The notes: a model not told the origin generated them from the letters alone. Positions 3,004-20,492 are shown, numbered from the stretch's first letter. The stretch is 64,000 nt of DNA from a virus (IMGVR_UViG_2700989044_000001:75683-139682); one strand, 5' to 3'. A program made the numbers and translations.

Positions 3004-4134
3004 ATGGCTGGTACTAAAATTGGTTTTCTTTGTTTTGGTGAAGGCGGTTCAAATGTTGGAGAGTATGCTGCTCAAAAAGGTTTTCCAGTAGTTGCAGTCA
3101 ATAGCGCTAAAATAGATTTAGAAAAAATAAAAATAATTCCAAAAGATTGTAGGATTCACTTGGATGGCTGGGAAGGTGCTGGCAGAAATAGAGATGTAGG
3201 TAGGGAAGCAGTTCTATCTCACGCAGAAACAATCTTTGAAAAGATAAAAGATAAATTTAAAGATTGTGACATGGTGTTTTCAGTAGCTTCAACAGCTGGC
3301 GGTACAGGTTCAGGATCTTTAGCGGTTGGTATCGAACTTCTTTCAGAAATAAATAGTAAAGTTGGAGCGATAACTATTTTGCCAGACAAAAATGAAAGCC
3401 CAAAAGCTCATATGAATTCTTTAGAATGTTTCTCTGAGTTAAGCCAATACGAACAATTGAATAGTACGTTTATCATTGATAATGAAAAAGCAAATCAAGT
3501 ATTTAAAGGCAAAGACAAAATTCAAATTTATCAATTATCTAATAATCAATTGATTGACAATTTAGCGGAAATATGCTCACTAACCGATCAACACGCTTTA
3601 GTTTCAAATTTTGATAAAAATGATCTACTTGAAATACTAAGTGAACGAGGAACCACTATAATTAGCAAGATAACAATACCAACAGAAGAATTGAAAGATG
3701 AAGTAGAAATTGTTAATGCAATTAGAAAATCTTGGGAAACTGTTTGTTCTTCTGACATTGGTGATGGGCAAATAGTAAAAGCTGGTGTATTTGGTAAAAT
3801 ACCAAAAGAATTAACTTCAATGATAGATTCAAGAAAAGTTTTTGAAGAAATTGGAATGCCATATGATATAATTGAATCTTACTATTTGAATACTGAACAC
3901 TCTAATCATTGTATTTTCTATACTATTCTTTCTGGATTATCCTACCCAATTGAAAGATTGAAACAAATAGAAAGTGAAGTACAGATGATTGAACAAGAAT
4001 TGATTAATAGAGTAGAAGTTTCTAGGACCCAAGTTTTTTCAACTAATAATTGGAACTCTAAGTTTAAACGACCTGAACAAAAACAAAATGTTAAAACATC
4101 GTTAAGTGATAGATTAACAAGATTTACTAAGTAA
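3004..4134 (+). CDS. tubZ: Tubulin/FtsZ-family GTPase, TubZ/RepX-like
   Basis: GFLCFGEGGSNV, GAGRNRDVG, tubulin signature AGGTGSG, IIDNEK, NFDKND T7-like loop. Confidence 0.9.
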   Translation: MAGTKIGFLCFGEGGSNVGEYAAQKGFPVVAVNSAKIDLEKIKIIPKDCRIHLDGWEGAGRNRDVGREAVLSHAETIFEKIKDKFKDCDMVFSVASTAGGTGSGSLAVGIELLSEINSKVGAITILPDKNESPKAHMNSLECFSELSQYEQLNSTFIIDNEKANQVFKGKDKIQIYQLSNNQLIDNLAEICSLTDQHALVSNFDKNDLLEILSERGTTIISKITIPTEELKDEVEIVNAIRKSWETVCSSDIGDGQIVKAGVFGKIPKELTSMIDSRKVFEEIGMPYDIIESYYLNTEHSNHCIFYTILSGLSYPIERLKQIESEVQMIEQELINRVEVSRTQVFSTNNWNSKFKRPEQKQNVKTSLSDRLTRFTK

Positions 4135-4140
4135 TATTTA

Positions 4141-5295: not shown

Positions 5296-5411
5296 TATAT
5301 CATTCTTATATTATTTTTTACTGATAATTTAATTTAAAATATATTTCTATTTTAATTAATATAAATATATAGTAAATATATTAAGAATAAGAGAAAGAGA
5401 GGTGTTTTAAA

Positions 5412-5495: not shown

Positions 5496-5563
5496 ATAAT
5501 AAATGAGTCGATTAGTTAAAATCTAATCGACTTTTATTTATTATTTAAACATGAGGTGGTAAC

Positions 5564-5980
5564 TTGACTAGAAATATGATAGTAGAAATAGAAGAGTTTA
5601 TAGATTCGTTAATAATAATGCACAATATTATTAATGAAAACAACATAAGTTTTGAGTTAAAAAAATCAGATAATGGTGTATTAACTTTATTTTCTATTAG
5701 TGGAAATTTAATTATAAATTCAATTAATGTAATAAAATTAGTTACAGTAACCGCAGAAGAAGATTTTTCTTGCACAGCGATGTGTGAAGTAAGTAGATTC
5801 AGTCCATTTTATAGAAAGTTACTAGACTATAAGAGCTCTCACGCTGGTTATATGAATTTAGATTTGGATAATTATCATAAAAAGTTTGAGTATAACTTTA
5901 GAGATTTAAAAAATTTTAATGATTTCTTTATGAAAATGATATGGGACGTTTTTATCTCTAACTTTATTTCTTCAAAATAA
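5564..5980 (+). CDS. Hypothetical protein
   Basis: RBS gaggtgg before TTG; 138 aa. Confidence 0.6.
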   Translation: MTRNMIVEIEEFIDSLIIMHNIINENNISFELKKSDNGVLTLFSISGNLIINSINVIKLVTVTAEEDFSCTAMCEVSRFSPFYRKLLDYKSSHAGYMNLDLDNYHKKFEYNFRDLKNFNDFFMKMIWDVFISNFISSK

Positions 5981-6056
5981 ACTTTTTAAAAACCATATAA
6001 TTGATATATAATATATTGCAACTCTTATTTTAGATTTGAATTTTAAATAATAGGAG

Positions 6057-6905: not shown

Positions 6906-6984
6906 TAATTATTTAGTGATTTTGTTAACTATTTATCGCTATTTTTATATAAATATATATCATATAAAAAAGGAGAGAATAGAT

Positions 6985-7554
6985 ATGAAACAACTATCAC
7001 TAGGAAAGAAAATAGCAGTTGGTGTAGGTGCTATATTAGTATTTTTCATAATCGTTGCAGCAATTGGTTCTACTACTTTATGGAGTCAGCGTGGAAAGGT
7101 AGTAAAATTAGAAAACAAGATTGAAGCACGATATAACTTCAATAAATCAGATTACGATAAAATGTGGAAGACGTTTGTTGAAACTGCTAAAGTTACAGAA
7201 TTACAAGCTGAGCAATTTAAAGATGTTTATACTGAATTAATTTCTGGACGATATGAAGACACAGATCTATTGTTTAAAATGGTTCAAGAATCAAACCCAC
7301 AATTGGGAACTGAAGTATATACTAATTTGCAAAGACAAATCGCTGCAGATAGATCAACTTTTAACAATAACCAAAAAGCAATTCTCGACATTATTAATCA
7401 ATACAATAATTACATTGAACACGATGCAATTATTATAGCATTTATTACAAACCGCAAACCTATCGATAGTAGCAAGTATATTATCACTTCAGAAAGAACA
7501 GAAAAAGCATTTGAATCAGGCAAAGATGAAGTTATTGATTTGCAAAGCAAGTAA
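6985..7554 (+). CDS. LemA-like single-TM helical membrane protein
   Basis: N-terminal TM then KLENKIEARY...VQESNPQL...YTNLQRQIAADRSTF; ATG 6985 has RBS aggag (track start 6916 is probably too long). Confidence 0.6.
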   Translation: MKQLSLGKKIAVGVGAILVFFIIVAAIGSTTLWSQRGKVVKLENKIEARYNFNKSDYDKMWKTFVETAKVTELQAEQFKDVYTELISGRYEDTDLLFKMVQESNPQLGTEVYTNLQRQIAADRSTFNNNQKAILDIINQYNNYIEHDAIIIAFITNRKPIDSSKYIITSERTEKAFESGKDEVIDLQSK

Positions 7555-7604
7555 CAAATAGTATTAACTCTGTAAAATGTATAGTTATTTTGGGAGGTAT
7601 ACAA

Positions 7605-7751
7605 ATGGACAATGAAATGTTCAAATTATTTGTTGAGAAGGTTGTTAACAATGAGTATTTGACAGATACAGAAAAGCTCAATGCCATTAAAGGATATTTA
7701 AATGATCCAGAAAATCTTATCTATAATATGGTTCTAGATAAGAAAGAGTAA
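7605..7751 (+). CDS. 48-aa hypothetical protein (not in ORF track)
   Basis: RBS gggagg; MDNEMFKLFVEKVVNNEYLTDTEKLNAIKGYLNDPENLIYNMVLDKKE. Confidence 0.6.
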   Translation: MDNEMFKLFVEKVVNNEYLTDTEKLNAIKGYLNDPENLIYNMVLDKKE

Positions 7752-7786
7752 TTATATAAACTCCTAAAAATGAGAGAGGTAATAGT

Positions 7787-8944
7787 ATGTTTTGGATTCC
7801 ATTACTTATTCTAGGGATATTCATTATAGCTCTAGAAATTATCTTTACGCATAATTGGTTAAGGGCAATATTGATAATTGTAATAACAGCTTTTTTATCT
7901 GCTGCTACAATTGGGATTGATTATACTATTCAAACTACAGATACAGAAGTTTGGTCTGGGAGCGTTATAGAGTGGAGTCACGATGAAGAGTGGGATGAAT
8001 GGCATCCACCAGTTACAACGTGTACAACTGATTCAAATGGAAAACAAAATTGTACAACAACTCCAGGATATTGGGAACACCACTATGCTGAAAATCACAT
8101 AAAAACTTCTGATAAAGGATGGATTTATGTTGATAAGTCTCCAGATGGAAAACGATTTGATGACAATTGGCCAAATGATAGTTCAGTGCTAAAGAAATAT
8201 TGGCCAGAAGGTACGCCTACTGCATCTAGACATACTTACACGAATAAAGTAAATGCATCTTACAGTATCTACAAACATAAAGATGTTGATTTAGAAAAGT
8301 TTCCTGACTTACCTAACTATCCAGACAAAGTAAGAGATAAAATGTTTATTGATAGAATAATCGGTAGTGTTCCAAATAAGGAGAAAGCAAGTGTATTGTT
8401 ATCTCACCACAATACAAGATTAAATAAACAAGTACCAGATCCAGAAAGAGAAAACAAAACTCGTTCTTGGAAACAAGTAAATATGATTTTTGTTAATGTT
8501 GGTGAAAATAAGTCTGAAGATTATGGTTTCGCTTTACAAGACAGTTGGGAAGGCGGAAATAAGAACGATTTCGTTGTATCTTTCAGTATGAACTCTGATG
8601 GAACTCTAAATTGGGTTTATCCTTTTAGTTGGTCTGAAGTGGAAATACTAAAGTTAGAAGTAAGAGATTACATGATGGATCTTAAGAAAATTAATGACTT
8701 TGTTCCTGTAGTTGAAAAGGTTTCAACAATGGTTGAAGAAAAGTTTGAAAGAAAAGAGTTTGCTGATTTTGATTACTTACAAATTGATCCAAGCAATGGT
8801 GTTATTGTTCTAATTTGGGTATTTAGTATTTTAGCTATTATTGTAAATGCTTTTCTAATCTTTAAAGAAAAGCAAGATCAAAGCAATAGACGTAATACTG
8901 ACAGACTTTATAATCCGCATAGGTACTATAATCCAAGAAAATAG
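7787..8944 (+). CDS. Membrane protein with large extracytoplasmic domain
   Basis: Two N-terminal TMs, one C-terminal TM, WEGGNKND motif, CTTDSNGKQNC loop. Confidence 0.7.
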   Translation: MFWIPLLILGIFIIALEIIFTHNWLRAILIIVITAFLSAATIGIDYTIQTTDTEVWSGSVIEWSHDEEWDEWHPPVTTCTTDSNGKQNCTTTPGYWEHHYAENHIKTSDKGWIYVDKSPDGKRFDDNWPNDSSVLKKYWPEGTPTASRHTYTNKVNASYSIYKHKDVDLEKFPDLPNYPDKVRDKMFIDRIIGSVPNKEKASVLLSHHNTRLNKQVPDPERENKTRSWKQVNMIFVNVGENKSEDYGFALQDSWEGGNKNDFVVSFSMNSDGTLNWVYPFSWSEVEILKLEVRDYMMDLKKINDFVPVVEKVSTMVEEKFERKEFADFDYLQIDPSNGVIVLIWVFSILAIIVNAFLIFKEKQDQSNRRNTDRLYNPHRYYNPRK

Positions 8945-8958
8945 GAAGGGTGTTATAA

Positions 8959-9282
8959 ATGATTTGTGATACTAGAGACTTAAGAACTTCGTTAAAGCTA
9001 AATCAGGTTGCTGTTTGTATCGATGAGCCAACACAAAAAGTCTATTGTTCGGAACAAGGTTTATTTCAAATTACGAATACGGGAACATCATTAGAATTCA
9101 GACCATCTTTATTTGAAGATAAAAAGTGGTATATCGATGAAAAAGATGTAAATGTTATGTCTGATAATGAAATGAAAGTAAAACTGGAAGAATTAAACAC
9201 TAAGCAAATAAAAATAATTTCAATTGCGGTTTGCGTATTATGGTTTGTTTTTGTTGGTGGATGTACAATAGTAAATGCATAA
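8959..9282 (+). CDS. Hypothetical protein with C-terminal TM
   Basis: RBS ggaaggg; hydrophobic C-terminus. Confidence 0.6.
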   Translation: MICDTRDLRTSLKLNQVAVCIDEPTQKVYCSEQGLFQITNTGTSLEFRPSLFEDKKWYIDEKDVNVMSDNEMKVKLEELNTKQIKIISIAVCVLWFVFVGGCTIVNA

Positions 9283-9345: not shown

Positions 9346-9378
9346 AAAAAACCTCTTAGAAAAACTAAGAGGTTTTTT
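9346..9378. terminator. Bidirectional terminator between convergent genes
   Basis: aaaaaacctcttag-aaaaa-ctaagaggtttttt. Confidence 0.8.
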
Positions 9379-10201
9379 AAATTAGATTTTCAAATGTTGT
9401 AAAGTGACATTTTAAATCTGAAGAATGTTTATCTATGAACTTAGAATAGTAATTATTTAGTTTGCTAAGTCTCTTTCTGTCGTTTAAGATGAAAATTATT
9501 GGTATAGTTACAGGAGCTTCGAATGGTTGCCAATCGTGACACTTGAAGTCAGAGCTATTAAAAAAATAATTATGATAAGCATCTATCTTCTTGTTGAGTA
9601 CATCTTGATTTTCCGTAGATAAGTCAATTTCAAAAAATGCATAATTGTCGTTTTCATTGTTAAGCCAATATGAAAAACAATCTGGTCTAATTTCGTACTC
9701 TTTTGATCCTACAGAATACTTTAGTTTTATTTCTTGTTTCCAATCAAGTACTTCATATTTACTAGCTAACCCAGAAAATACCTCACTTACAGCAACAGTA
9801 TGTCTCCATTTTTGGTTTAATTTTTTAATAGGTCTGAATAGTTTTATATCTAATAGTTTTGATCCAGGTCTTGTTAGTACATAATGATATTCCGAAGAGC
9901 CTTCCCCTATGGATAATCTTGGAGAAAATCTATCTACACACCCTAATGAGAATAATTTTTTCATAGTTTTTAAAGTTGATTTATCTGGTGAGTTACTATC
10001 TGGATAAAATATCTTAGCTATTTGAGAAGTAGTAACTATTTTGTTCATGTTGATCATTTTGAGTATTTTGATATCTTTGTCATTAAGCCTAAGTTTAAGT
10101 TCGTTTATATAGTGAGCATTAGACTTTTTAACTGCTTCTTCGTGTAAATCTCTTAGCTTTCTATTCCTCTCCATTAATAGACAAACATCAGACGTAATCA
10201 T
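9377..10201 (-). CDS. Replication-relaxation (Replic_Relax) family relaxase-like protein
   Basis: N-terminal wHTH (IVTTSQIAKIF...LFSLGCV), GEGSSEYHYVLTRPG, RHTVAV, IRPD, FFEIDLSTE; the only long minus-strand gene, RBS aggagg on minus strand. Confidence 0.8.
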   Translation of the reverse strand: MITSDVCLLMERNRKLRDLHEEAVKKSNAHYINELKLRLNDKDIKILKMINMNKIVTTSQIAKIFYPDSNSPDKSTLKTMKKLFSLGCVDRFSPRLSIGEGSSEYHYVLTRPGSKLLDIKLFRPIKKLNQKWRHTVAVSEVFSGLASKYEVLDWKQEIKLKYSVGSKEYEIRPDCFSYWLNNENDNYAFFEIDLSTENQDVLNKKIDAYHNYFFNSSDFKCHDWQPFEAPVTIPIIFILNDRKRLSKLNNYYSKFIDKHSSDLKCHFTTFENLI

Positions 10202-10252
10202 AAATAACCTCCTTTTATTATATAGATATTCTAATTAATCAAAAATGATACC

Positions 10253-10383
10253 AGAAATTGGTTAATTTCTATGGTTAATTTCTTTTGATATTAACTGTGA
10301 TGTGTCTCCAACTATAAACAGTTGATGGATTTTTAAGGCGTGACCGTGCAAATCCTTCCTATCTCATTTTCAATGAGATGGAA
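10253..10383. repeat. Inverted/direct repeat cluster, candidate oriT or operator
   Basis: IR agaaatt-ggtt-aatttct (10253-10270); DR tggttaatttct x2 (10259, 10272); hairpin ttcc-t-atctcatt-ttc-aatgagat-ggaa (10356-10383). Confidence 0.45.
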
Positions 10384-10454
10384 CCTTGAGGAGGTTGGTG
10401 ATAAAAAAAATGAAAAATTTCTCAACGAAAAACTTTTTATTTTTTTGTGTCTCT

Positions 10455-10477
10455 TTTTTCGTCGTGGTGAATATAAT
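10455..10477 (+). promoter_or_regulatory. Putative promoter motif TTTTTC.TCGT..GTGAATATAAT (copy 1)
   Basis: Near-identical copy at 13105-13128; GTGAATATA also at 10762. Confidence 0.45.
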
Positions 10478-10513
10478 GAAAATATAACAAAGAAAAAAAG
10501 ATGGTGATAAATT

Positions 10514-10696
10514 TTGTTAGATAAAATAGAAGATTTAACTTTAGAATTTCTATTTGTTATTACTGATTTTGTTTATAAGATAGTAATTAACATAATAGAA
10601 AATTATATTGTTACAAGTGATGTCTGGCCAAAGTTGATTTTTGTAGGTATTATTTTCTGGATGTTTAAGAAGAAAAGAGTGGTGAGGAAAAAATAG
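10514..10696 (+). CDS. Small membrane protein at start of T4SS-like cluster
   Basis: Hydrophobic C-terminal helix followed by KKKR. Confidence 0.55.
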   Translation: MLDKIEDLTLEFLFVITDFVYKIVINIIENYIVTSDVWPKLIFVGIIFWMFKKKRVVRKK

Positions 10697-10810
10697 ATAA
10701 TTTCCTTATTATATAGGAAGGAAAAATAAATTTCTAATTCTTTGTAACATTTGATATTATTGTGAATATATTGATAATATAAGGTGGAAAATAAAAGGAG
10801 GAAACATAAC

Positions 10811-11269
10811 ATGGCTGAGTATTCGTTTGCTGATAGTAAATATGAGTCATTGGCTCAAGATTTAATTGATGCAGACCCAATTGATTTAGGTCATATCGAT
10901 GTTAGTGCAATTGCTTTTCTGAATAAAGAAGAGAAAAATCCAAAGTGGCCTTTTAGAATAATACCAATAAGAGAACCACTAACTATGTTAACTAAGTTTG
11001 AGTATTACGTTGAAATATGCGAATCACTATTAGAAAATGCAACTAAAGAACATATCGAATTACATATCTATAAAATTCTAAGACAAATTGATAAAGAGAG
11101 TGGAAGAATCATACATCCAAATGTTATTGAGTTTAGCGACATAATAGATTTGTTCGGTTATGACTGGCAAGAAAAGAAAATGTTACCTTCTATTATAGAT
11201 CAATTAGATGCAAAGACAGTTGCAAATACTTTGGTAGGTAACACTAGTGGACCGCCTAGCGTAATTTAA
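10811..11269 (+). CDS. Phage putative-metallopeptidase-like protein with degenerate zinc motif
   Basis: RBS aaggagg before ATG 10811; LHIYKILRQI...HPNVIEFSDII...YDW; paralog of 308-784. Confidence 0.5.
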   Translation: MAEYSFADSKYESLAQDLIDADPIDLGHIDVSAIAFLNKEEKNPKWPFRIIPIREPLTMLTKFEYYVEICESLLENATKEHIELHIYKILRQIDKESGRIIHPNVIEFSDIIDLFGYDWQEKKMLPSIIDQLDAKTVANTLVGNTSGPPSVI

Positions 11270-11288
11270 AATAAAGGAGAGAAGGTAA

Positions 11289-11753
11289 ATGAAAAAACAT
11301 TACGAAGTAGTCGGGACTATTGCGGAGTTAGATCTTAGGGAGTTAATAACTGAAAAAGAAAATAGCTTCGACGTTAATAAAGAAAAATTAAAGTTTATAG
11401 TTTCTGCAGCACTTTCAACTCTAATATTTTCATTAGTTTTTCAGGATCCATCTTTAGCAGCTAATGGTGAAATGATACAAACTGCTTCTTCCAATTTTAA
11501 AACTCCTACACAGTTAAATCACATACTGGAATTTGTTAGTTGGATAATCGATTTATTGAAATACATTTTATCGGGAATTGCAGGTTTAATTTGTACATTC
11601 GCTGGTTATAAGTGGGCTACATCTTTAGAAGGTAATGGCCAAGAAGCTGCTAAGAAAATTCTAAAGAATGCATTTGTAGGTGGCGTAATAGTTTGGACAG
11701 GTTCTTCAATAGCTGGATTCTTTGTGGATAAAATGAATGAAATATTAGGGTAG
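11289..11753 (+). CDS. VirB2/TrbC-like pilin
   Basis: Leader ending in PSLA, then two hydrophobic helices separated by EAAKKILKNAFVGGVIV. Confidence 0.7.
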   Translation: MKKHYEVVGTIAELDLRELITEKENSFDVNKEKLKFIVSAALSTLIFSLVFQDPSLAANGEMIQTASSNFKTPTQLNHILEFVSWIIDLLKYILSGIAGLICTFAGYKWATSLEGNGQEAAKKILKNAFVGGVIVWTGSSIAGFFVDKMNEILG

Positions 11754-11767
11754 TTTGGAGGGAGAAA

Positions 11768-11905
11768 ATGAGAGACCCATATAGTAAGATATTTGTTTAT
11801 ACAGTCGCAGGATTTTGCGGCGTTGCTGGTTTTATCATAACATATATTGCTATTGGTTATCTATTTAAGCCGGCGGAAACTTGGATTGAAAATAAAATGA
11901 GATAA
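11768..11905 (+). CDS. 45-aa single-TM protein (not in ORF track)
   Basis: RBS ggagggag; MRDPYSKIFVYTVAGFCGVAGFIITYIAIGYLFKPAETWIENKMR. Confidence 0.6.
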   Translation: MRDPYSKIFVYTVAGFCGVAGFIITYIAIGYLFKPAETWIENKMR

Positions 11906-11939
11906 AAAATAAAAATTGATAAAATAAGGGGGAAATTTA

Positions 11940-12089
11940 ATGTTTACTACTATTAGTGCAGTTGTTGGGACTGTTTTTCAATTTTATGTTGCCTCTAGAG
12001 TTTGCGTAGGTATTTTCAAAAATGTAAAAAACAAGTTAGAGAGTAATCAAGTTGAAAGTGAATCTCTAGACAGTAAGAAGGTGATTTAA
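11940..12089 (+). CDS. 49-aa hydrophobic-N-terminus protein (not in ORF track)
   Basis: RBS aaggggg; stop abuts GTG of VirB6-like gene. Confidence 0.55.
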   Translation: MFTTISAVVGTVFQFYVASRVCVGIFKNVKNKLESNQVESESLDSKKVI

Positions 12090-13049
12090 GTGGATTGGAG
12101 CTTAGGGATAACGGAATCTATTAAAAAAGAAGTCGGTGAAAGTTGGGAATTAATAAAAGAGAATATTGGAGATTTCTTCCTATATTTATCACAACAATTA
12201 CAAGAAGGAGCAAATAGTTTTTTAGCAGAAATGCTAGATTTCGTACTCTATACTCCTTTAGTAGCTGATAATGAAATCATTTTATCTATTTGGGCGACAG
12301 TTAGAATTATTTCATTTGCACTCATTGGTGTAATGTTCGTTTGGGAAGGATTTAAGAAAGTTATTTCAACCGACAATATTATAAGACATGTGGAGTTTAA
12401 AGAAATGTTTGTAAGGATGGTTTACGGAATAGTATTAGCTGTTTTTAGCTTAGACATTATTGATTTGATGATTAACTTTAACAATGTTTTAATCGATACA
12501 GTGAAAAGTTCTTTCCCAATGACATTAGAATCTAAGTTAAATATAAATGGAGTATTCAGCTTCCTTATGGTATTAGCTTTAGTAATAGTTCAAGTTGTAT
12601 TAGGAATAAAACTCGTCTTACAGTACTGGATGCGTATAGCAGAGATATGGCTCATGGCTGTATTAGGTCCTCTGGTATACGTACTATGGATAAACCCTGG
12701 CTCGAAATTAAGTGGAGTTTTATCGCAGTGGGTAAGCAGGCTTACAACTACAATATTTACTACATTCATATGGGCTTTAATTTTAGCAATTTATTCTGGT
12801 ATGGTGAGTATGATAGCTTCTGCTGGCATGTTAGCTGGTTTCCCTACTCTAGGTCCAATTGCAGGAATTTGTTTATCAATAGCCATGTTGCTAATTATGA
12901 TTGAAACACCAGCATTCTTAAGGAGTTTTATGGACAACCAACCTAATGCATTGCATTTAGTTAAGAAAGTTTATACCAACGTTAAATCAAGTACGCCTAT
13001 GGGGTTTGCTAATAAAGCTGCTGGATGGATACTACCTAGTAAAACGTAA
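12090..13049 (+). CDS. VirB6/TrbL-like polytopic membrane protein
   Basis: About 6 TMs; RIAEIWLMAVLGPLVYVLW...W motif; position between pilin and PrgI/VirB4. Confidence 0.75.
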   Translation: MDWSLGITESIKKEVGESWELIKENIGDFFLYLSQQLQEGANSFLAEMLDFVLYTPLVADNEIILSIWATVRIISFALIGVMFVWEGFKKVISTDNIIRHVEFKEMFVRMVYGIVLAVFSLDIIDLMINFNNVLIDTVKSSFPMTLESKLNINGVFSFLMVLALVIVQVVLGIKLVLQYWMRIAEIWLMAVLGPLVYVLWINPGSKLSGVLSQWVSRLTTTIFTTFIWALILAIYSGMVSMIASAGMLAGFPTLGPIAGICLSIAMLLIMIETPAFLRSFMDNQPNALHLVKKVYTNVKSSTPMGFANKAAGWILPSKT

Positions 13050-13071
13050 TTTATTTAAATTACGTTTTTTT
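13041..13071 (+). terminator. Terminator within T4SS cluster
   Basis: aaaacgtaattt-attt-aaattacgtttt plus T run. Confidence 0.6.
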
Positions 13072-13104
13072 ATTTTTTTAAATTATTTACCATATTTTAG
13101 GTCA

Positions 13105-13128
13105 TTTTTCATCGTTAGTGAATATAAT
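13105..13128 (+). promoter_or_regulatory. Putative promoter motif (copy 2)
   Basis: tttttcatcgttagtgaatataat, matches 10455-10477. Confidence 0.45.
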
Positions 13129-13153
13129 AATTATATAAGGAGGAGGAAATAAT

Positions 13154-13531
13154 ATGATAGAGAAAGAACCATTATGTGCTATACCAAGAAATTTAAATGA
13201 GCCAGATACTATTATCCACTATCCTGTAAAGTTAAATTGGAAACAAATTAGTTATATTTGCGTAGGTGTAGCGGGAGCATATTTTGCTTTTCAAACTGGG
13301 TTACCTATTGAATATAAAACTGCTTTAATGGCTGGTAGCGTTGGAACTTCATTAGTTACTAGTTTAATAAAATATGAAGATTCTACTATTGATGAATTGG
13401 TAATTGATAGTTTGCACTATGCTCAGAAGAAAAATATCTATAGACAACTAGAGAAACGAGGTGCAATGAATGTCAAATTCAACTCTTATGAAGAAAAAAT
13501 CACCGGAGATTATGCCTTTTCAGAGTTCTAG
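13154..13531 (+). CDS. prgI: PrgI/VirB3-like membrane protein
   Basis: IPRNLNEPD.I..P..LNWKQISY N-terminus, two TMs, overlaps virB4 start. Confidence 0.7.
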   Translation: MIEKEPLCAIPRNLNEPDTIIHYPVKLNWKQISYICVGVAGAYFAFQTGLPIEYKTALMAGSVGTSLVTSLIKYEDSTIDELVIDSLHYAQKKNIYRQLEKRGAMNVKFNSYEEKITGDYAFSEF

Positions 13532-15161
13532 TCTCCGCAAAGTATTAAAGGTTTCATCAGTCAATTTAGGGTTTAAATCCTACAATGATAAACTTGCTAT
13601 TGTTGAAAATTTCGGTAGATTTTTAAACTCTTTAACTCATCCTATACAAATAGTTAGTGATACAAAGTTGATAAATCCAGATGAATGGCTATTAAAAATG
13701 CCAGATCAAGATTATTATGAATTCTTAAAAGACTTAGTAAACTCTAGTAATGTTTCAGAGAAAATATTTTACATAGCTTATACTGCGCAAGATGAGTCAG
13801 AATTAAAGATAATAACAGATGCTTTAAGGAGTGGAATTAAAAGGTGTCGTCTATTGGCAGAAGAAGTTGAACCCGAAATTTCACAAAGCATACCAGTGCT
13901 TAAACCAGGACATGTTAAAGTTGGTGATTGGTATAATCATACTTTGATAGTAAAGAATTGGCCACATAGCTGCGTATCGGGTTGGTTAGAAAACCTGTAC
14001 AATTTAGACAAAAACATAACTTTATCAATGTTTATAGAGCCACAAAATAAACAAGATTCTATTAAATACATTAGCAAGAGACTAGCAAGATTGCAATCTA
14101 ACTCAATTATTAAAGATAAAGAAAATAAAACTAATGGCGAAGAAGATGAAAGTATTGCAACTGGTCTAAATATGAGAGAAGAACTAATGAGAAATGAAGG
14201 TAATTTCTTTTTCGTTAGTTATTACATTACTGTTAAAGCAAAAAGTTTAGAACAATTAAAAAGAGATACAAAATTTGTAAAAACTATTTTAAACGGAATG
14301 ATGATTGAAACGTCTAAAGCTACTTTAAGACATGATGATGGATATAGATGTTCACTCCCACTTATGCAAAATAACCTTCGTTCTAAAGCTGCGTATACAT
14401 TCACAACTACCCCACTAAAGAGATTTTTCCCTTTTATGTCTGCTAATATAGTTGATAAAGGCGGAATAATGATTGGTAGCAATTTATTAAATAATTCATT
14501 AATTTTCTTAGATCACTTTAGTTATTCAACAGCGAGTATGGTTGTTATAGGAAAGACTGGTTCTGGTAAATCATTTACTGTAAAAGCTCAAATAGATAAG
14601 CTGGTAAAACAGGGAGTGGAAGTAACTGTTTTAGATATAGAAAAAGAATTTGATAGGATGCAAAAGCATAAGAATTTAATAGTAAAACACTTTGGGACCA
14701 AGGTTGAACAGTACAAACAATTCTTATTTGACTATTGGGAAGAAGTAAATAATGGACCTAAAAAACCAAGATTTTTAGTAATTGATGAGTTTTGGAGCTA
14801 TAAAAAAGATCCGGAAATAGCTGATTTATTGCAAAAAATGGCTAAGTTAGGAAGAAAGAGATGGTTAGGTATTTGTCCGATTACTCAAGAAGTAAATGAT
14901 ATGTTAAGTGATGAATTCTCTAAGAGTCTAATAAATAATTCCAGTATAAAAATTATTTTACAAATTGATCCTAATCAAAGAAAATTAGTACAAGAAACTT
15001 TTGGTTTGACAGATTCTGAAGTATCTTTCTTAATTGGTGCATCTGAGGGTGAAGGAATATTGTTCGCAGGTACAAATCATGTGCAATTTAAAACAATTGT
15101 ATCAGATAAACAATATGCGCAAATAACGACAAAGCCACAGGAGTTATATCAAGTTAGTTAA
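13470..15161 (+). CDS. virB4: VirB4-like ATPase (compact)
   Basis: Walker A VIGKTGSGKS, Walker B LVIDEFW, RKRW...ITQEV.D, GASEGEG, N-terminal FFVSYYITV segment. Confidence 0.85.
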   Translation: MSNSTLMKKKSPEIMPFQSSSLRKVLKVSSVNLGFKSYNDKLAIVENFGRFLNSLTHPIQIVSDTKLINPDEWLLKMPDQDYYEFLKDLVNSSNVSEKIFYIAYTAQDESELKIITDALRSGIKRCRLLAEEVEPEISQSIPVLKPGHVKVGDWYNHTLIVKNWPHSCVSGWLENLYNLDKNITLSMFIEPQNKQDSIKYISKRLARLQSNSIIKDKENKTNGEEDESIATGLNMREELMRNEGNFFFVSYYITVKAKSLEQLKRDTKFVKTILNGMMIETSKATLRHDDGYRCSLPLMQNNLRSKAAYTFTTTPLKRFFPFMSANIVDKGGIMIGSNLLNNSLIFLDHFSYSTASMVVIGKTGSGKSFTVKAQIDKLVKQGVEVTVLDIEKEFDRMQKHKNLIVKHFGTKVEQYKQFLFDYWEEVNNGPKKPRFLVIDEFWSYKKDPEIADLLQKMAKLGRKRWLGICPITQEVNDMLSDEFSKSLINNSSIKIILQIDPNQRKLVQETFGLTDSEVSFLIGASEGEGILFAGTNHVQFKTIVSDKQYAQITTKPQELYQVS

Positions 15162-15176
15162 GGAAGGAGTGTAATT

Positions 15177-17654
15177 GTGTTTAGTAAAAAAATTGAATAT
15201 CCTAAAGATAGTATTGTCATTAAATTGGAGAATGATATTGAATCTACTCATGATGATAGATCTAGTGAGGTTGAGAGTTTTTGGTCTAGTATTCATGGGT
15301 TACAAGATAAAAAAGAGCGACCAACATTTTCTTTTGAGATATTAAGTGACAAAAAAGGAGCAGCTTTTTATCTAGCTATACCTAAAAGATTTCAAAGTAT
15401 AATTGGTAAAAAGTTAAATGCAGTTTATCCATATATAGAAATTAAAGAAGTTGCTGATCCAGTTAAAGAGTTTAGTCCTAAGATAGATGAACACGTTTAT
15501 AGTTGTGAGTTAAAGTTAACAAATCATGAATCTTTTAATTTAAAGACATCGGGTTTAAGTAAGACATTTTTAAATAATTTATTAAATACTATGAACCATT
15601 TTAATGAGGATGATTCATCATTAGTGCAAATTTTAATAAAACCGTTACCAGAATCTTGGAATCATAAAGCTCAAAGAAATTCAACTAGAGCAAGGGCAAA
15701 AAGTTTTCATAGTTCAAATCCAATTGTAAAAGGATTAATGTTGATAGTAGATTTACTAGTAAGCTCGGTAATGTTAGTACTTGATTCAACAGTTACTAAT
15801 GGACAACTTAAAAAATCATTTAAAGAAGTATCCGCAACAACTACTAAAACAGAAAAAGATGATAAATTTTCAAAACCCTGTTTTAATGTTTCAGTTAGGA
15901 TTGCATCTAAATCAAAAGATGCAATTGTAGCAGAACAAACAGCTAAGAGTATATCAACAGTGTTCCAAAATTTAGATAGTGAAAACAAACTAAGACCTAA
16001 AAAAATAACTTTTAAATCTATAGAAGAAAGGTTTGAAGAACCAAAGACATTTAAAAATAGCGCGTTAAATGTACAAGAAATGTCCCAGTTTATACATTTA
16101 CCTGGGAAAGGTGTATCCGCTGATAATGTCGGTAAAGGAAATGTAAAAATGCCATATGACAAAAATGTTCCATCTAAAGGAATAGTTTTTGGATATAGCC
16201 CGCAAAAAGATAATAAACCTGTTGCTTTCCCTATGAAAGTTATTTCTTTAGAAAAATACGACGAATTATATGACGAATATGAAAAGCTAATCGATAACTT
16301 ATGTAAGCCTAGATTGGTTTTAGGTCAAATGGGTACTGGGAAAAGTGAGTGGGTAGTTAATTATACTCTTAGTTTAATTAATGCGGGACTATCTGTAATT
16401 ATTGTAGATCCTAAAAATGATACTCAAGAAAGGTTAATACAATCAATATCTGAAGATAAAATAGATAAAATTGACTACTTAAATTTAGGAGATTTAATAT
16501 TCCCTCCTGGTATGAATCTGCTGAGACGTAGAAACCCTGGCGACCCAACTGAAATATCATTAATTGTACAATCTTTAATAAGCTTCTTTAAGAAAGAATT
16601 TGGACGTTCGTGGGGCTTTGCGATGCAGCAATTAATTATGATGACTGGTAATGCTATCTTATTAGATGAAGTCGCAACTCTATACGAATTCCAATTAATG
16701 TTAACTAATAAAGAGTATAGAGCAAAAATGATAGACAAGATAGAAGCGAAAATAGCTGAAAACTCTGGTGGTAAAGCAATGTTAAAAGAGTTACTACAAT
16801 TCTGGAAACAGTTTCATAGTTGGCCAGAAAAAAATCAAATGGATCGCATTAGTTCCACAATGAATAAGATAGGCGTATTTATGAGTAATAGAATTGTAAG
16901 AGCTATAGTGTCTCAAGAAGAAAGTTATGATTTTAGAAAAGCTGGAGATAATGGAAGAATAACTATTGTTAATATTCCTGATGGAGAATTGCAAGATGAA
17001 AATAGAGAACTATTAGCATCATTTATAAATAAAGCTATTTGGTTAGATTTCCGTTCGCGAGCATCTATGCCTATAAGAAAACGTTATCCAACTATGTGGT
17101 TAATTGAAGAAGCACACATGGTTATGGATACTGAATTTATACCTGTCTTAACTCAATCTCGTGGATATCGTTTAGGCGTAACAGTATTAACTCAAGGCTT
17201 AACGAACTTTGATAATAAAGGTATGAGTGAACTTAAAGATTTAATTTTAACTAACTGCAAAAATAAAGTAGTTTTCCGTGTTGGGCCACAAGATGCTCGC
17301 GCATTAGCGGAAGAATTCTCTCCACTTACTTCATATGATTTAATGAATTGTCCAGATTATCATTTCTATTCTAAGATACTACTTGAAGATGGTAAAGTTT
17401 CAGATGTGTTCTTTGCGAATTCACCACCAGTAGCACCTGAATTAAGAGATTATCAGAAATACAAAGAAGCAAGTAGATCTGGTAAATATACAATAGATGA
17501 AATAGAGGATAGACTAGATTCAAGACATAACTTAGAAGATACATCTTCTATAATGAATTTAGGTTTATCTATGGAAGAGGAAAAAACAATTGTTAAAGAA
17601 GAAAAACCTAAAAAGAGAAGGGCTAAGCCAGGTCTAGAGTTTTTAGATAATTAA
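15177..17654 (+). CDS. virD4: VirD4/TraD-like coupling ATPase
   Basis: Walker A LVLGQMGTGKS, IIVDPKND, Walker B LIEEAH, SRGYRLGVTVLTQ, NKVVFRVG..DA. Confidence 0.8.
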   Translation: MFSKKIEYPKDSIVIKLENDIESTHDDRSSEVESFWSSIHGLQDKKERPTFSFEILSDKKGAAFYLAIPKRFQSIIGKKLNAVYPYIEIKEVADPVKEFSPKIDEHVYSCELKLTNHESFNLKTSGLSKTFLNNLLNTMNHFNEDDSSLVQILIKPLPESWNHKAQRNSTRARAKSFHSSNPIVKGLMLIVDLLVSSVMLVLDSTVTNGQLKKSFKEVSATTTKTEKDDKFSKPCFNVSVRIASKSKDAIVAEQTAKSISTVFQNLDSENKLRPKKITFKSIEERFEEPKTFKNSALNVQEMSQFIHLPGKGVSADNVGKGNVKMPYDKNVPSKGIVFGYSPQKDNKPVAFPMKVISLEKYDELYDEYEKLIDNLCKPRLVLGQMGTGKSEWVVNYTLSLINAGLSVIIVDPKNDTQERLIQSISEDKIDKIDYLNLGDLIFPPGMNLLRRRNPGDPTEISLIVQSLISFFKKEFGRSWGFAMQQLIMMTGNAILLDEVATLYEFQLMLTNKEYRAKMIDKIEAKIAENSGGKAMLKELLQFWKQFHSWPEKNQMDRISSTMNKIGVFMSNRIVRAIVSQEESYDFRKAGDNGRITIVNIPDGELQDENRELLASFINKAIWLDFRSRASMPIRKRYPTMWLIEEAHMVMDTEFIPVLTQSRGYRLGVTVLTQGLTNFDNKGMSELKDLILTNCKNKVVFRVGPQDARALAEEFSPLTSYDLMNCPDYHFYSKILLEDGKVSDVFFANSPPVAPELRDYQKYKEASRSGKYTIDEIEDRLDSRHNLEDTSSIMNLGLSMEEEKTIVKEEKPKKRRAKPGLEFLDN

Positions 17655-17678
17655 AAAGGGACGAAAGTTCCTTTTTTT
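17653..17678 (+). terminator. Terminator closing T4SS-like cluster
   Basis: aaaaagggac-gaaa-gttccttttt, GNRA loop. Confidence 0.75.
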
Positions 17679-17739: not shown

Positions 17740-18156
17740 ATGGTTGAAGAGATACTAATACAACAGTTGTATAGCGCTAGCTTACTTAGAAAAGAAATGT
17801 ATAGTATTGAAGATGTATTGTCAAAGCGCGTAGAATCATACTTTAAAAGTAAAGATTCTAAAGTAGATTTTGATGGTGATTTGATAAAAATGAATTCTCA
17901 AAGATATGAAGTTTTTGATTTAAAAGGTATAATTTGCTGTAGTTGTGGATTAGAAGGTAGATTTTTTGCAAAAGAAAGAGGTAATGAGAGCTACCCTTAT
18001 CATTTTAATTTATATGCTGTTAATGATAAAGGCGAGGAAGTACTTATGACTAAAGATCACATTGTACCAGTTTCAAAAGGTGGTAAAAATCACATTAGTA
18101 ATTATCAAACCATGTGTATTATTTGTAATGAAAAAAAGGGAAATCAAGAGGTTTAA
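17740..18156 (+). CDS. HNH endonuclease
   Basis: CCSCG, TKDHIVPVSKGGKNHISNYQTMCIICNEKKG. Confidence 0.9.
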   Translation: MVEEILIQQLYSASLLRKEMYSIEDVLSKRVESYFKSKDSKVDFDGDLIKMNSQRYEVFDLKGIICCSCGLEGRFFAKERGNESYPYHFNLYAVNDKGEEVLMTKDHIVPVSKGGKNHISNYQTMCIICNEKKGNQEV

Positions 18157-19141: not shown

Positions 19142-20401
19142 ATGTCAAAAAAATTAAATTGGTTAGATAAATTCGCTCAAGAGCAAGCTGAAAAACAAAC
19201 AATGAAGAAGGTAGCATCTACTAAAAAAGTTGCTAATCAAATTATCGTAAGTCCAGAAGATGTACCAAGTGCTGAAGAAGGATCTACAATTGAGTTTAAT
19301 GGTGAACAATTTAAAGTCGTAGACGCTAATTTCTCTGATGAAGTTGGCCCAGGTGTAGTATTAGAAAGAGCTGCTGCTTACGAAAATTTACAAGGTAATC
19401 CAATGGACGTTTCTATGGGTACACAAAGTGCTGGTATGGTACCAGCTTCTAATAATGGTCAACAATATCACTATGATTTAAATAACAATACTCAACAAAC
19501 TTATAGCATTGAAGAAGATGCTCAATATGGTATGTCTTCTGCACCAGCTACTGAACAACAAATTGCAGGGGAAAACGCAGTAGATCGTACAAATGTTCCA
19601 GGTAGATACACTCCATCGCCTGATTTAAGTTCTGCTAATGGTGTGGCTACTCCAGGTATGCCTACTGCTCCAGCGCCAGTTTCAGTTGATGCGCCAGCTG
19701 CAGCTCCAACAACTGAACCAGCTCCAGCTGCTGAAACTCCAGTGGGAGATACTACAACTACTGAAGAACTAACTGTTGATGAAACTACTGAAACTCCAAC
19801 TGAAGACAAAACTGAAGAAAAAGAAAACAAAATTCTTTCTAAAGTTAAAAGTTCTCTTCCAAAAAAAGAGAAAAAAGCAGTTTCTAAAAGAACTGCAATG
19901 AATACTTCTATTATCAACTTAGCTTCTGATGTTTCTGATGCTATTGTTGCTGAAACTGAAGATGTATTAGAAGATGCTGAAGAAACAGTTAAGCAATTAG
20001 TTCCTTCACATTTAGCTACAAAAGCTCTTCAACTATTAGAAGCGGAATTAGAAGAAGAAGGTATCGAAGCTTTATTTGATAAAGCTGATTCTTTAAGTAA
20101 AACTGCTGGTGAAGAAGAAGATTGTACTGAAGAAGAAATGAAAGAAATTGTTAAAAAAGTTGCTGAAGCTGTAGTGGAAGATATGGAAAAAACTCTTGCT
20201 GAAGCTGATGAAACAATGGATGAAGAAAGAGAAACTTTAGCTGATGGTGAAGATCAATTTGAATTAGAAGCTAAATTAAAAGCTATGGTTGAACGCAAAT
20301 TACATGCTAAAGGTATTTATACTCGTTTCGCTCGTACAGCTAAAAAAGCTCCAAAGAAAACAATTGCTCAAAAAATTCGTGAAGCTCGTAAAAATCGCTA
20401 A
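19142..20401 (+). CDS. Acidic low-complexity protein, possible internal head/scaffold-like protein
   Basis: E/D/A/P/T-rich with basic ends; highly expressed-type codon bias (gct, act, gaa). Confidence 0.55.
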   Translation: MSKKLNWLDKFAQEQAEKQTMKKVASTKKVANQIIVSPEDVPSAEEGSTIEFNGEQFKVVDANFSDEVGPGVVLERAAAYENLQGNPMDVSMGTQSAGMVPASNNGQQYHYDLNNNTQQTYSIEEDAQYGMSSAPATEQQIAGENAVDRTNVPGRYTPSPDLSSANGVATPGMPTAPAPVSVDAPAAAPTTEPAPAAETPVGDTTTTEELTVDETTETPTEDKTEEKENKILSKVKSSLPKKEKKAVSKRTAMNTSIINLASDVSDAIVAETEDVLEDAEETVKQLVPSHLATKALQLLEAELEEEGIEALFDKADSLSKTAGEEEDCTEEEMKEIVKKVAEAVVEDMEKTLAEADETMDEERETLADGEDQFELEAKLKAMVERKLHAKGIYTRFARTAKKAPKKTIAQKIREARKNR

Positions 20402-20492
20402 TTAAAATAAAAACTTTTATAATTTGTATTTTATAAGCAGATACTATAATTTAGTATCTGCTTTTTATTTGCTATTAAGGAGGCGGTTTAAA

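Follow-up and report, generated by a model that had tools for sequence, protein, structure and literature searches.

At positions 9377–17654 of the window analyzed here, a stretch of 64,000 nucleotides from the 497,513-bp genome of phage G, a giant myophage of the Bacillus group, we found a T4SS-type gene set accompanied by a relaxase-family gene (Table 1). To judge from the sequence comparisons, this module is the fullest known version of the phage "DNA translocation operon" that Pathria et al. (2012) described in 0305phi8-36 (orf200–207) and, in partial form, in SPO1 (gp27.3–27.9, gp29.1; PMC3357382). We consider the chances about even that the phage G version of this operon of large Bacillales phages is a minimal T4SS-type translocon exporting DNA. 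The first-pass annotation had taken the locus for an undescribed system, a claim superseded by that homologous operon and by a phage G paper of 2025, in which gp155–156 were named TraC/TraD-like and were absent from the virion proteomes (PMC12484599). What is new here are the added VirB4, VirB3, and VirB2-like parts, the lineage-wide conservation, the replacement of actin by tubulin, and the finding that the "coupling" ATPase is folded like VirB4 at its N terminus.

Table 1. Features of the phage G module and of its surroundings, in positions of the window
Feature	Position	Strand	Basis or remark
TubZ/FtsZ-like tubulin gene	3004..4134	+	Pfam Tubulin 63.4 bits
Terminator-like hairpin at the end of the relaxase gene; left locus boundary	9346..9378	-	14-bp stem then T run
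Replic_Relax protein, MOB_C relaxase family; HTH and PD-(D/E)XK-type nuclease domain	9377..10201	-	PF13814 89.4 bits
Tandem 13-nt direct repeat, candidate protein-binding site	10259..10284	.	Divergent intergenic region
32-nt island with 9-bp hairpin, candidate cis element (oriT-like or regulatory)	10355..10386	.	
PhageMetallopep-like protein	10811..11269	+	PF18894 23.7 bits, exactly at cut-off
VirB2/TrbC-like pilin	11289..11753	+	T4SS_pilin 27.4 bits (cut-off 26.6); TrbC E 6e-4
45-aa single-pass membrane protein	11768..11905	+	Shine-Dalgarno site, one predicted membrane segment
49-aa single-pass membrane protein	11940..12089	+	Shine-Dalgarno site, one predicted membrane segment
VirB6/TrbL-like polytopic membrane protein	12090..13049	+	TrbL_4 44.4 bits; ~6 predicted membrane segments
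PrgI/VirB3-like small protein	13154..13531	+	N-terminal IPRNL motif conserved in ortholog alignment
Compact VirB4 ATPase gp155, 549 aa	13512..15161	+	Longest ORF start 13470
DUF8128 ATPase gp156, 825 aa, "coupling ATPase" of the phage operon	15177..17654	+	PF26449 on record
Terminator-like hairpin, right operon boundary	17653..17676	+	10-bp stem then T run

Gene content and boundaries of the locus

The ORFs lay where the first-pass annotation had placed them, and its listing of relaxase, pilin-like, VirB6-like, PrgI-like, and VirB4 genes inside a jumbo myophage was borne out by family matches of either the phage G proteins or their orthologs. Hairpins of the terminator type bound the locus at both ends, Shine-Dalgarno sites precede nearly all the genes, the reading frames and the Walker A and B motifs of the ATPases are intact, and the GC content of the module (0.29–0.32) is similar to that of the flanks, all as that annotation had described; the predicted membrane segments agree with the assignments. 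The further observation of the first-pass annotation that no integrase was visible holds for the entire genome, in which neither a tyrosine or serine recombinase nor an integrase was found. The virion-morphogenesis module that it had located 1 kb away is not supported, there being no recognizable structural gene between 18.6 and 31.9 kb and the nearest being the tail sheath at 31936. An HNH homing gene adjoins the locus.

The divergently transcribed gene encodes a member of the family that CONJscan designates MobC (PF13814), whose relaxases pair with VirD4-type coupling proteins in mobilizable elements (PMC5357655). The protein matches phrog_9381 (E 4.5e-89), the residues H134, E157, D174, E191, D193, and K205 are invariant in eight relaxase orthologs, including SPO1 gp27.3, and the dN/dS of the gene is 0.19. 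By these sequence criteria a relaxase gene of a recognized MOB family is present, with a predicted nicking activity. Of the two candidate sites in the divergent intergenic region, the 13-nt tandem repeat is not conserved in relatives; the 32-nt island, which occurs once in the genome, is identical (32/32 nt) in the closest relative, L005, despite saturated synonymous sites, and was not found in more distant loci when up to 7 substitutions were allowed. The retention of this island in the closest relative alone speaks against translocation.

Among the small genes that follow, the PhageMetallopep-like protein has orthologs in six related loci (L001, L002, L004, L005, L006, and L013), of which only that of L013 carries the HExxH motif; this motif is missing from the phage G protein, which is probably not an active peptidase. 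The pilin-like protein begins with an extended leader that contains an A-x-A site and continues as two hydrophobic helices (predicted membrane segments at residues 33–52, 83–105, and 128–146), and six of its eight orthologs match T4SS_pilin, with a best E of 5.8e-8. Small ORFs resembling the 45-aa membrane protein occupy the same position in L004, L005, and L008, and the tiny ORFs occur as a pair in L001, L003, L004, and L005. The VirB6-like protein aligns with ORF203 of 0305phi8-36 over 276 residues (BLASTP E 3e-7), and its gene has a dN/dS of 0.10. Although the PrgI-like protein of phage G itself has no Pfam match, three of seven orthologs match PF12666 PrgI (best E 2.4e-5), the L013 ortholog likewise carries PrgI, and the gene is always immediately upstream of that of VirB4. 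The VirB6 and VirB3 parts of a channel are therefore represented, the VirB3 assignment being made through the orthologs.

Gram-positive systems usually include a VirB8-like scaffold and a VirB1-like cell-wall hydrolase. No VirB8-like protein was recognized, in that phage G gave no TpcC match, and although export would require that the Gram-positive wall be crossed, no cell-wall hydrolase was found in the phage G locus; both results argue against translocation. The sole M23 domain of the genome belongs to the tape measure protein, while in the relatives L001 and L004 an M23 peptidase gene lies inside the module.

The two ATPases

The best profile for gp155 is that of NCBIfam conju_CD1110 (NF045971), with 174.8 bits and an E of 2.6e-51, a score that does not reach the curated cut-off of 325 bits; the match falls into two stretches, the better one between residues 147–399 of the protein and positions 202–461 of the 752-position model. 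The protein also matches the VirB4_CagE and TraC profiles as well as the sequence of the VirB4 crystal structure 4ag5 (E 5.9e-13). The compact VirB4s of G-like phages form one monophyletic clade (support 99) on a long stem, with a Walker A motif in 31 of 32 members, and the dN/dS of the gene is 0.07–0.11. We accordingly assign gp155, on sequence grounds, to a divergent, compact clade of the family VirB4. The named cellular VirB4s nearest to this clade are mostly from Patescibacteria, the VirB4s of Bacillales plasmids lie at about the same distance (28–29% identity), and the tree does not settle the sister group.

The PHROG family that gp155 matches with an E of 5.9e-272, phrog_2666, bears the label "terminase large subunit," from which a genome-packaging enzyme might be deduced. 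The label found no support, the only Pfam and NCBIfam matches being of the VirB4/TraG/HerA type; gp155 is missing from the virion proteomes (PMC12484599), and a canonical Terminase_6N gene, the true TerL, lies at genome position 259–591, so that a packaging role for gp155 is exceedingly improbable.

The second ATPase, gp156, is harder to classify. Its sequence profiles are of the TraD/VirD4 type and not of VirB4, namely SXT_TraD (E 1.5e-9) and conju_CD1115 (E 5.4e-8), both far under the curated cut-offs, together with TraG-D_C; in distant homologs, DUF8128 is joined to T4SS-DNA_transf and TrwB_AAD_bind. In the AlphaFold model (pLDDT 82.9), the fold of the motor domain resembles the C-terminal domain of VirB4 (Z 27.1) and TrwB (26.1) more than FtsK (17.6), whereas the N-terminal domain matches that of TrwK over 257 residues with a Z of 16.0, the next match being at 8.0. 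Both R388 folds, TrwK (VirB4) and TrwB (VirD4), are thus matched by the gp156 motor and that of the TrwK N-terminus by the gp156 N-terminus, but the sequence identity is 8–15% and gp156 carries an extra membrane helix (residues 182–205) inserted in its N-terminal domain. The model would make gp156 a combination of a VirB4-type N-terminal domain with a VirB4/VirD4-type motor domain and not a canonical VirD4, a deviation that counts against translocation. The earlier label "VirD4-like" is thus correct only by half, the N-terminal domain having the fold of VirB4. Since both ATPases group with VirB4/VirD4 and not with the FtsK, HerA, or packaging families, the objection that the first-pass annotation had itself anticipated on this point does not hold.

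Conservation and relation to known systems

The same gene order recurs in no fewer than 12 metagenomic contigs of G-like phages, usually beside the tubulin gene: the sequence tubulin-relaxase-pilin-VirB6-PrgI-VirB4-DUF8128 ATPase was found on L001–L008 and L011–L013, not all of which have the adjacent relaxase. This synteny persists down to a VirB4 identity of 31% on contigs of up to 215 kb that carry phage genes, and the dN/dS of the module is about 0.07–0.28, with saturated dS, values comparable to that of the flanking phoH. The comparison with related phages that had been proposed as a check therefore gave a conserved order and purifying selection, and the module, so far as these sequences indicate, is old and vertically inherited within the G-like jumbo phages. 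A recently captured, decaying plasmid or ICE fragment carried as a passenger, or a chimera of the assembly, might be suspected because every part has plasmid or ICE homologs and because of the neighboring HNH gene; this explanation is nevertheless very improbable in view of an order held in independent contigs across deep divergence, a purifying selection equal to that of the flanks, the native GC content, the lack of any integrase or recombinase, the intact frames and motifs, and a genome re-sequenced with long reads (PMC12484599).

The adjacent Replic_Relax gene was not seen in the most diverged relatives (L007, L008, L011, and L012), a point against DNA export: like that of Patescibacteria, the channel may be able to do without a relaxase. 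Immediately upstream of the module there is a tubulin gene in L001, L002/L003, L006, L007, L008, L011, L012, and L013; phage G itself has 5.2 kb inserted between the two. In SPO1 and 0305phi8-36 an actin-like Alp takes the place of the tubulin, with ALP_N in SPO1 gp27.9 and in ORF207; no such actin-like gene (an MreB/actin partner) is present in the phage G module, where the tubulin holds the linked position.

The published operon comprises a MobC-like relaxase, a coupling ATPase, VirB6, and an actin-like protein, its orf200 having been linked to CloDF13 MobC with an HHpred E of 4.4e-22 (PMC3357382). The phage G relaxase matches ORF200 (E 2e-7), gp156 matches ORF201 over its full length (BLASTP E 9e-14) and SPO1 gp27.4 (tblastn E 8e-23), and the genes that tblastn with the relaxase and gp156 found in SPO1-like and CP-51-like phages are neighbors. 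Phage G, 0305phi8-36, and SPO1, all of them lytic phages of spore-forming Bacillales, thus share a MobC/Replic_Relax relaxase beside a coupling-type ATPase of ~800–900 aa, a weak pilin-like gene, and a partition-type cytoskeletal gene alongside, the VirB6 homolog (ORF203) being shared with 0305phi8-36. Only in phage G and its relatives, in contrast, were VirB4 proper and a gene of the PrgI/VirB3 type seen, and the two tiny membrane proteins are likewise confined to the G-like lineage; the relaxase gene, which in the other two follows the ATPase, is in phage G divergent and at the head of the operon.

With the Gram-positive MPF-FATA/FA systems, in which VirB6 is represented by PrgH/VirB6, the module has in common the best VirB4 profile (conju_CD1110) and a PrgI gene before that of VirB4; a polytopic protein of the VirB6 type, a pair of ATPases, and a relaxase gene are shared as well. 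The phage VirB4, however, reaches only 175 of the 325 bits set as cut-off and is ~200 aa shorter, phage G showed neither a VirB8-like protein nor an adhesin nor a dedicated wall hydrolase, and the coupling ATPase, which in those systems is VirD4 or TcpA, has a VirB4-type N-terminal domain. The pilin-VirB6-PrgI-VirB4 set that the first-pass annotation took for the Gram-positive conjugation core is only partly that core, because the Gram-positive MPF classes are without the VirB2-like pilin that phage G possesses (PMC12102498). The chromosomal T4SS of Patescibacteria do combine VirB4, PrgI/VirB3, VirB6, and a VirB2-like pilin (T4SS_pilin) with the absence of VirB8 (PMC12102498), but the phage VirB4s form a clade of their own, and most of the patescibacterial clusters are without a relaxase, whereas most of the phage loci keep the MOB_C gene. 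The MOB_C mobilization pairs—CloDF13 MobC with MobB, and MobC with VirD4 in streptococcal IMEs of class 8—are likewise made up of a relaxase of the PD-(D/E)XK type and a coupling-type ATPase dedicated to it; the phage G element, though, is a 0.5-Mb lytic phage with no integrase and not a plasmid or IME, and its ATPase has no two-helix N-terminal membrane domain of the usual kind.

Candidate functions

If the module does export DNA, its proteins, made in the infected cell, would most probably form a minimal translocon of the T4SS type within the cytoplasmic membrane of the host. A particular DNA site, which may lie in the divergent intergenic region, would be nicked or bound by the relaxase-family protein, and the nucleoprotein would then be passed by the DUF8128 motor to the channel of VirB3, VirB4, and VirB6. 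Delivery of the DNA to the translocon would fall to the tubulin, and DNA, probably that of the phage, would cross the membrane and exit the cell. That the parts form a single machine, that its cargo is DNA, and in which direction and to what destination the cargo moves are what we infer from the gene set, and any transfer of DNA or of effectors by the module would be purely conjectural. A precedent for a partition cytoskeleton acting with a relaxase, a coupling protein, and VirB4 is ParM of plasmid R1, which binds TraI, TraD, and TraC (PMC4949242). Deletion of the 0305phi8-36 operon, dispensable in the laboratory, caused no growth defect (PMC3357382); any role would therefore be conditional.

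That same dispensability, which extends to replication, counts against a rather unlikely alternative, in which the module would handle DNA solely inside the cell, nicking by Replic_Relax serving to start or resolve replication and the tubulin and motor serving to tether, position, or segregate the genome at the membrane without export. The names of the relaxase family ("replication initiation by nicking" in PHROG, replication-relaxation in Pfam), the cytoskeletal genes of the partition type to which the module is linked in each of three phage groups, and the occurrence of the relaxase-motor pair without VirB4 in strictly lytic SPO1-like and CP-51-like phages—in SPO1 also without VirB6—are consistent with such handling, but it would not account for the retention under selection of a pilin with a signal peptide, of a VirB6-like channel, and of VirB3 and VirB4.

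Also unlikely is a T4SS co-opted for a role other than with DNA, such as the export of protein or a short VirB2-type surface structure that would alter the envelope or the contacts of the infected cell, for instance in superinfection exclusion, adhesion, or aggregation. A parallel would be the mostly relaxase-less chromosomal T4SS of Patescibacteria, whose set is resembled by the VirB2-like pilin, VirB6, PrgI, VirB4, and DUF8128-type ATPase (PMC12102498) and whose VirB4s predominate among the nearest named ones; the lack of an adjacent relaxase gene in the most diverged phage relatives and the aggregation behavior of 0305phi8-36 (PMC3357382) point in the same direction. The roughly equal distance of the Bacillales plasmid VirB4s and the unsettled sister group of the phage clade weaken this parallel, however, and a MOB_C gene with conserved catalytic residues stands beside the module in most loci, in SPO1, and in 0305phi8-36.

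Within the reading of DNA export, virion-free propagation from cell to cell has already been proposed for the 0305phi8-36 operon (PMC3357382). Extended to the G-like jumbo phages, this proposal becomes one that we regard as improbable: that a self-encoded minimal T4SS provides a second, virion-independent route for phage DNA into a chain neighbor through the shared septum or from the mother cell into the forespore, with the MOB_C protein and the DUF8128 motor processing the DNA and the tubulin carrying it to the VirB3/VirB4/VirB6 pore. DNA export in general has against it that we know of no precedent in a phage for a 0.5-Mb linear genome being moved through a T4SS. If the virion-independent route existed, a 0.5-Mb virus could propagate or survive in places where diffusion or adsorption of so large a particle is impossible, and the reduced relaxase-motor sets of the SPO1-like and 0305phi8-36-like phages would be mobilizable versions of the same strategy.

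Composition and setting of the T4SS-type locus

The window covers nucleotides 75683-139682 of one virus record of 497,513 bp, the genome of phage G, and has a GC content of about 30% throughout; the contractile-tail genes within it include those for the sheath, for baseplate J, and for a tape measure protein of 2893 aa, in which glucosaminidase and M23 domains occur (gp183 of phage G, the gp numbers being those of papers on that phage). The first-pass annotation had described a locus of conjugation-type genes plus a relaxase gene, which observation is confirmed: the ORFs lie where they had been placed, and both terminators, the Shine–Dalgarno sites, and the Walker motifs of the module genes were verified (Table). 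The reported lack of an integrase also holds, no tyrosine integrase or serine recombinase being found in the entire genome; the virion module said to lie at a distance of 1 kb, for its part, was not located, there being no recognisable virion gene within 14 kb downstream.

Table. Features of the module and of its surroundings, with positions in the window.
Feature	Position (nt)	Strand	Evidence or description
Tubulin-to-relaxase interval	4198-9282		~5.2 kb; truncated PPDK-like gene, five ORFs without assigned function
ORF within that interval	6057-6905		
Terminators	9346-9378; 17653-17676		
Replic_Relax	9377-10201	(-)	89.4 bits; phrog_9381
Tandem 13-nt repeat	10259-10284		
32-nt island	10355-10386		9-bp hairpin
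PhageMetallopep-like	10811-11269		23.7 bits, at cut-off
VirB2-like pilin	11289-11753		T4SS_pilin 27.4 bits; long leader with an A-x-A site at its end, two hydrophobic helices
Two tiny single-pass membrane proteins	11768-11905; 11940-12089		Predicted membrane segments
VirB6/TrbL-like	12090-13049		TrbL_4 44.4 bits; ~6 membrane segments
PrgI/VirB3-like	13154-13531		IPRNL motif conserved
phrog_2666 (family of gp155)	13470-15161		E 5.9e-272
VirB4 (gp155)	13512-15161		conju_CD1110 174.8 bits, VirB4_CagE, TraC; PDB 4ag5 E 5.9e-13
825-aa ATPase (gp156)	15177-17654		Weak TraD/VirD4 profile matches
HNH endonuclease	17740-18156		HNH_5 43.9 bits
Two conserved genes	19142-21641		Acidic low-complexity 419-aa protein; 405-aa protein with CarboxypepD_reg/Ig-like repeats
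phoH	21799-22608		ORF of 212 aa with a separate 51-aa ORF before it
184-aa ORF	23561-24115		No family match
Tail sheath	31936-33699		

Together the parts correspond to a T4SS inner-membrane core—VirB3, VirB4, and VirB6 with a VirB2-like protein—beside which stand a second motor of the VirB4/VirD4 family, an MOB_C enzyme, and a lineage-wide link to a partition-type tubulin. The smaller components were also recognised through their orthologs: T4SS_pilin was matched by six of eight pilins and PrgI by three of seven PrgI/VirB3-like proteins (best E 2.4e-5), the phage G protein itself giving no family match in the latter instance. The HExxH motif of the metallopeptidase-like protein occurs in only one related metagenomic locus, L013, and is missing from phage G. 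A search of phage G for TpcC, and for M23 beyond the tape measure protein, returned nothing, no VirB8-like protein or dedicated wall hydrolase being seen by this route. Two of the related loci carry an M23 peptidase gene within the module at differing positions (L001, 8658-9137; L004, 6685-7221), which gene may take the part that a cell-wall hydrolase plays in Gram-positive T4SSs. A promoter scan was uninformative, with 56 sites versus 53.5 expected.

Two ATPases of the VirB4/VirD4 family

The PHROG family to which gp155 belongs is labelled 'terminase large subunit'. We rejected a packaging ATPase or terminase on the strength of the VirB4 profile and 4ag5 matches, and the label must be wrong because the true large terminase (TerL) lies elsewhere in the genome, at position 259-591, outside the module; phrog_2666 is thus corrected to VirB4, the terminase label, if left as it stands, being one that will mis-annotate G-like phages. 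Nor is the 'F-like' designation of a recent phage G paper (PMC12484599) suitable, since gp155 scores 175 bits with the CD1110 profile, of Gram-positive type, versus 70 with that of the F-type TraC.

Regarding gp156, the DUF8128 'coupling' ATPase, we compared an alignment-based AlphaFold model (pLDDT 82.9) with the PDB. In that comparison the closest structure to the motor domain, which spans about residues 327-767, was the C-terminal domain of VirB4 (4ag5; Z 27.1 over 342 aligned residues, rmsd 3.2), nearly tied with the DndH C-terminal domain (Z 26.2) and TrwB/VirD4 (Z 26.1), with HerA (Z 22.8) and FtsK (Z 17.6) lower. The N-terminal 330 residues, given a separate model (pLDDT 82.4) and compared with 48,161 chains, Foldseek not being used, matched only the TrwK/VirB4 N-terminal domain (Z 16.0, 257 residues, rmsd 3.9), the next structure reaching Z 8.0. 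The two matches together indicate that the modelled gp156 has the full VirB4 architecture, with one membrane helix inserted (residues 182-205). The 'VirD4-like' assignment of the first-pass annotation is therefore upheld in part: the sequence motifs lean toward TraD/VirD4, distant DUF8128 relatives bear VirD4 Pfam domains, and TrwB is among the near-tied structures, but the N-terminal fold is of the VirB4 type. A VirB4 architecture in the phage 'coupling' ATPases of this family bears on the divergence of VirB4 and VirD4.

Conservation among relatives and the surrounding genes

About 30 full-length VirB4 relatives were found at 31-80% identity, all located on contigs from metagenomes, several of which are 90-215 kb long, with recorded lengths reaching 558 kb; searched by Megablast, with its own record masked, the locus had no match in the phage and plasmid collections, and a scan of viral_contigs with the VirB4 protein yielded no confirmed relative. 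A common gene order prevails in 11 of the 13 loci fetched: tubulin, Replic_Relax (on the opposite strand), the metallopeptidase-like gene, and the pilin with tiny membrane ORFs, followed by TrbL_3/4, the PrgI-like gene, VirB4, and an ATPase of about 750-840 aa, with the CarboxypepD_reg protein and phoH further downstream. The most diverged loci (L007, L008, L011, and L012) retain both ATPases along with the tubulin and channel genes, and at none of these four was a Replic_Relax or metallopeptidase-like gene seen. Between phage G and either L005, the closest relative, or L004, synonymous sites are saturated, and the dN/dS is 0.07-0.28 for the module, the neighbours having values of 0.05-0.07 (phoH) and 0.14-0.30 (CarboxypepD_reg).

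When 108 VirB4 sequences were placed in a tree, the compact proteins of the phages grouped as a single clade (support 99, stem length 0.43), whose sister was joined with a support of 42 and on a long branch, for which reasons we make no claim of a Patescibacteria origin. The nearest named cellular VirB4s are mostly from Patescibacteria, with those of Bacillales and actinomycete plasmids about equally distant (28-29% identity). Conservation and selection led us to reject a recent ICE insertion and, taken with the VirB4 clade and distances, rule out recent capture or a chimeric assembly, the latter of which the first-pass annotation had named as capable of overturning its proposal.

Around the module, the tubulin gene abuts it in most relatives; in phage G the tubulin and relaxase genes are split by a lineage-specific insertion that includes the PPDK-like gene, and of its five ORFs only one was matched among the fetched loci (36%, in L001). 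The HNH gene, directly after the operon terminator, is present at the same site in L005 only, being missing from the other G-like loci, and looks like a homing-endonuclease insertion. The two conserved genes beyond it always lie downstream of the module, at a distance, and nothing was found tying them to virion or T4SS parts. The PhoH of relatives is 264-276 aa long, and the split gene in phage G agrees with an in-frame stop that a separate first-pass entry had recorded. The product of the 184-aa ORF, at 72-77% identity in L001 and L002 versus 30-55% for its neighbours, is a strongly constrained protein of G-like phages.

The published operon and possible functions

A DNA translocation operon has been published for phage 0305phi8-36, comprising a MobC-like relaxase (orf200), a VirD4-like coupling ATPase (orf201), a VirB6 homolog (orf203), and an MreB-like protein (orf207), with a partial copy in SPO1 (gp27.3, gp27.4, and gp27.9); a 6.6-kb operon deletion left growth normal in the laboratory, and Pathria et al. 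proposed particle-free propagation from cell to cell via DNA translocation (PMC3357382). The homology is confirmed: the phage G ATPase resembles ORF201 (BLASTP E 9e-14, full length) and gp27.4, the VirB6-like protein ORF203 (E 3e-7), and the relaxase ORF200 and gp27.3, with H, E, D, ExD, and K residues invariant. ORF204 and SPO1 gp29.1 gave weak pilin matches, and ORF207 and gp27.9 are actin-like Alps, whereas VirB4 and PrgI-like genes were seen in phage G but in neither of the other two phages. In SPO1 a single block (2250-8307 of locus L009) takes in gp29.1, gp27.9, three genes for tiny membrane proteins, gp27.4, and gp27.3 (Replic_Relax 47.5 bits), and in the siphovirus TP-84 (4498-7037 of locus L010) the gene for a TrbC-like membrane protein of 126 aa (E 5.8e-5, sub-cut-off) overlaps the start of a homologous ATPase gene. 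The putative pilin-like status of gp29.1 and of the TP-84 protein comes only from such sub-threshold Pfam hits, an hhalign comparison with the G-like pilin alignment giving no support.

A 2025 multi-omics study called gp155-156 TraC-like and TraD-like, did not find them in particle proteomes, considered their function in phages 'entirely unknown', and made no mention of genes for the pilin, VirB6, VirB3, or the relaxase (PMC12484599). The first interpretation is partly supported: the locus, with a homologous operon already published and those two proteins already named, is not the 'undescribed system' then proposed, but a fuller variant of a published, functionally putative kind and not a new class. 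What is new here is a full inventory of the parts, their conservation and selection throughout the lineage, the replacement of actin by tubulin, and the VirB4-type architecture of the 'coupling' ATPase; phage G and its relatives supply a version with a real VirB4/VirB3/VirB6/VirB2 set, of which the 2012 operon is a reduced form.

We prefer, at about even confidence, a membrane translocon that would be built during infection and export relaxase-processed DNA. The Replic_Relax family has a PD-(D/E)XK fold (PMC3424549) and is treated by CONJscan as that of the MOB_C relaxases, partners of VirD4-type coupling proteins (PMC5357655). Plasmid R1 has a partition actin, ParM, that promotes transfer and binds relaxase, coupling protein, and VirB4-like ATPase alike (PMC4949242), and the filament at the phage loci, actin-like or tubulin, may serve likewise; a role of the locus confined to replication, positioning, or tethering within the cell, to which a partition-type filament might belong, we deem unlikely. 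Simple conjugation is disfavoured by the failure of the searches of phage G to bring up a VirB8-like protein or wall hydrolase, by the absence of a relaxase gene from the most diverged loci, by the dispensability of the 0305phi8-36 operon, and by the very large genome. A co-opted role not involving DNA, as proposed for Patescibacteria (PMC12102498), would suit relatives with both ATPases and no relaxase gene, and the MOB_C enzyme elsewhere in the lineage less well; we rank it slightly lower. If the translocon works, a cultivable lytic phage would own a conjugation-type machine, the boundary that separates viruses from conjugative elements would be blurred, and the phage would gain a way to spread or persist in chains of cells, biofilms, or spores, where giant virions diffuse poorly. 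Testable predictions follow from the full VirB4/VirB3/VirB6/VirB2 set—foci at the membrane, DNA nicked at a defined site, and DNA movement that depends on contact—and, phage G being cultivable on its Lysinibacillus host, the locus merits experiment.

The 580-bp divergent region from the relaxase gene to the channel operon contains the tandem repeat and the 32-nt island. The island is unique in the genome, was not found in more distant loci, and is identical in L005 though the nearby intergenic DNA and the synonymous sites have diverged; judged by its sequence, it could be a candidate oriT-like or regulatory site.
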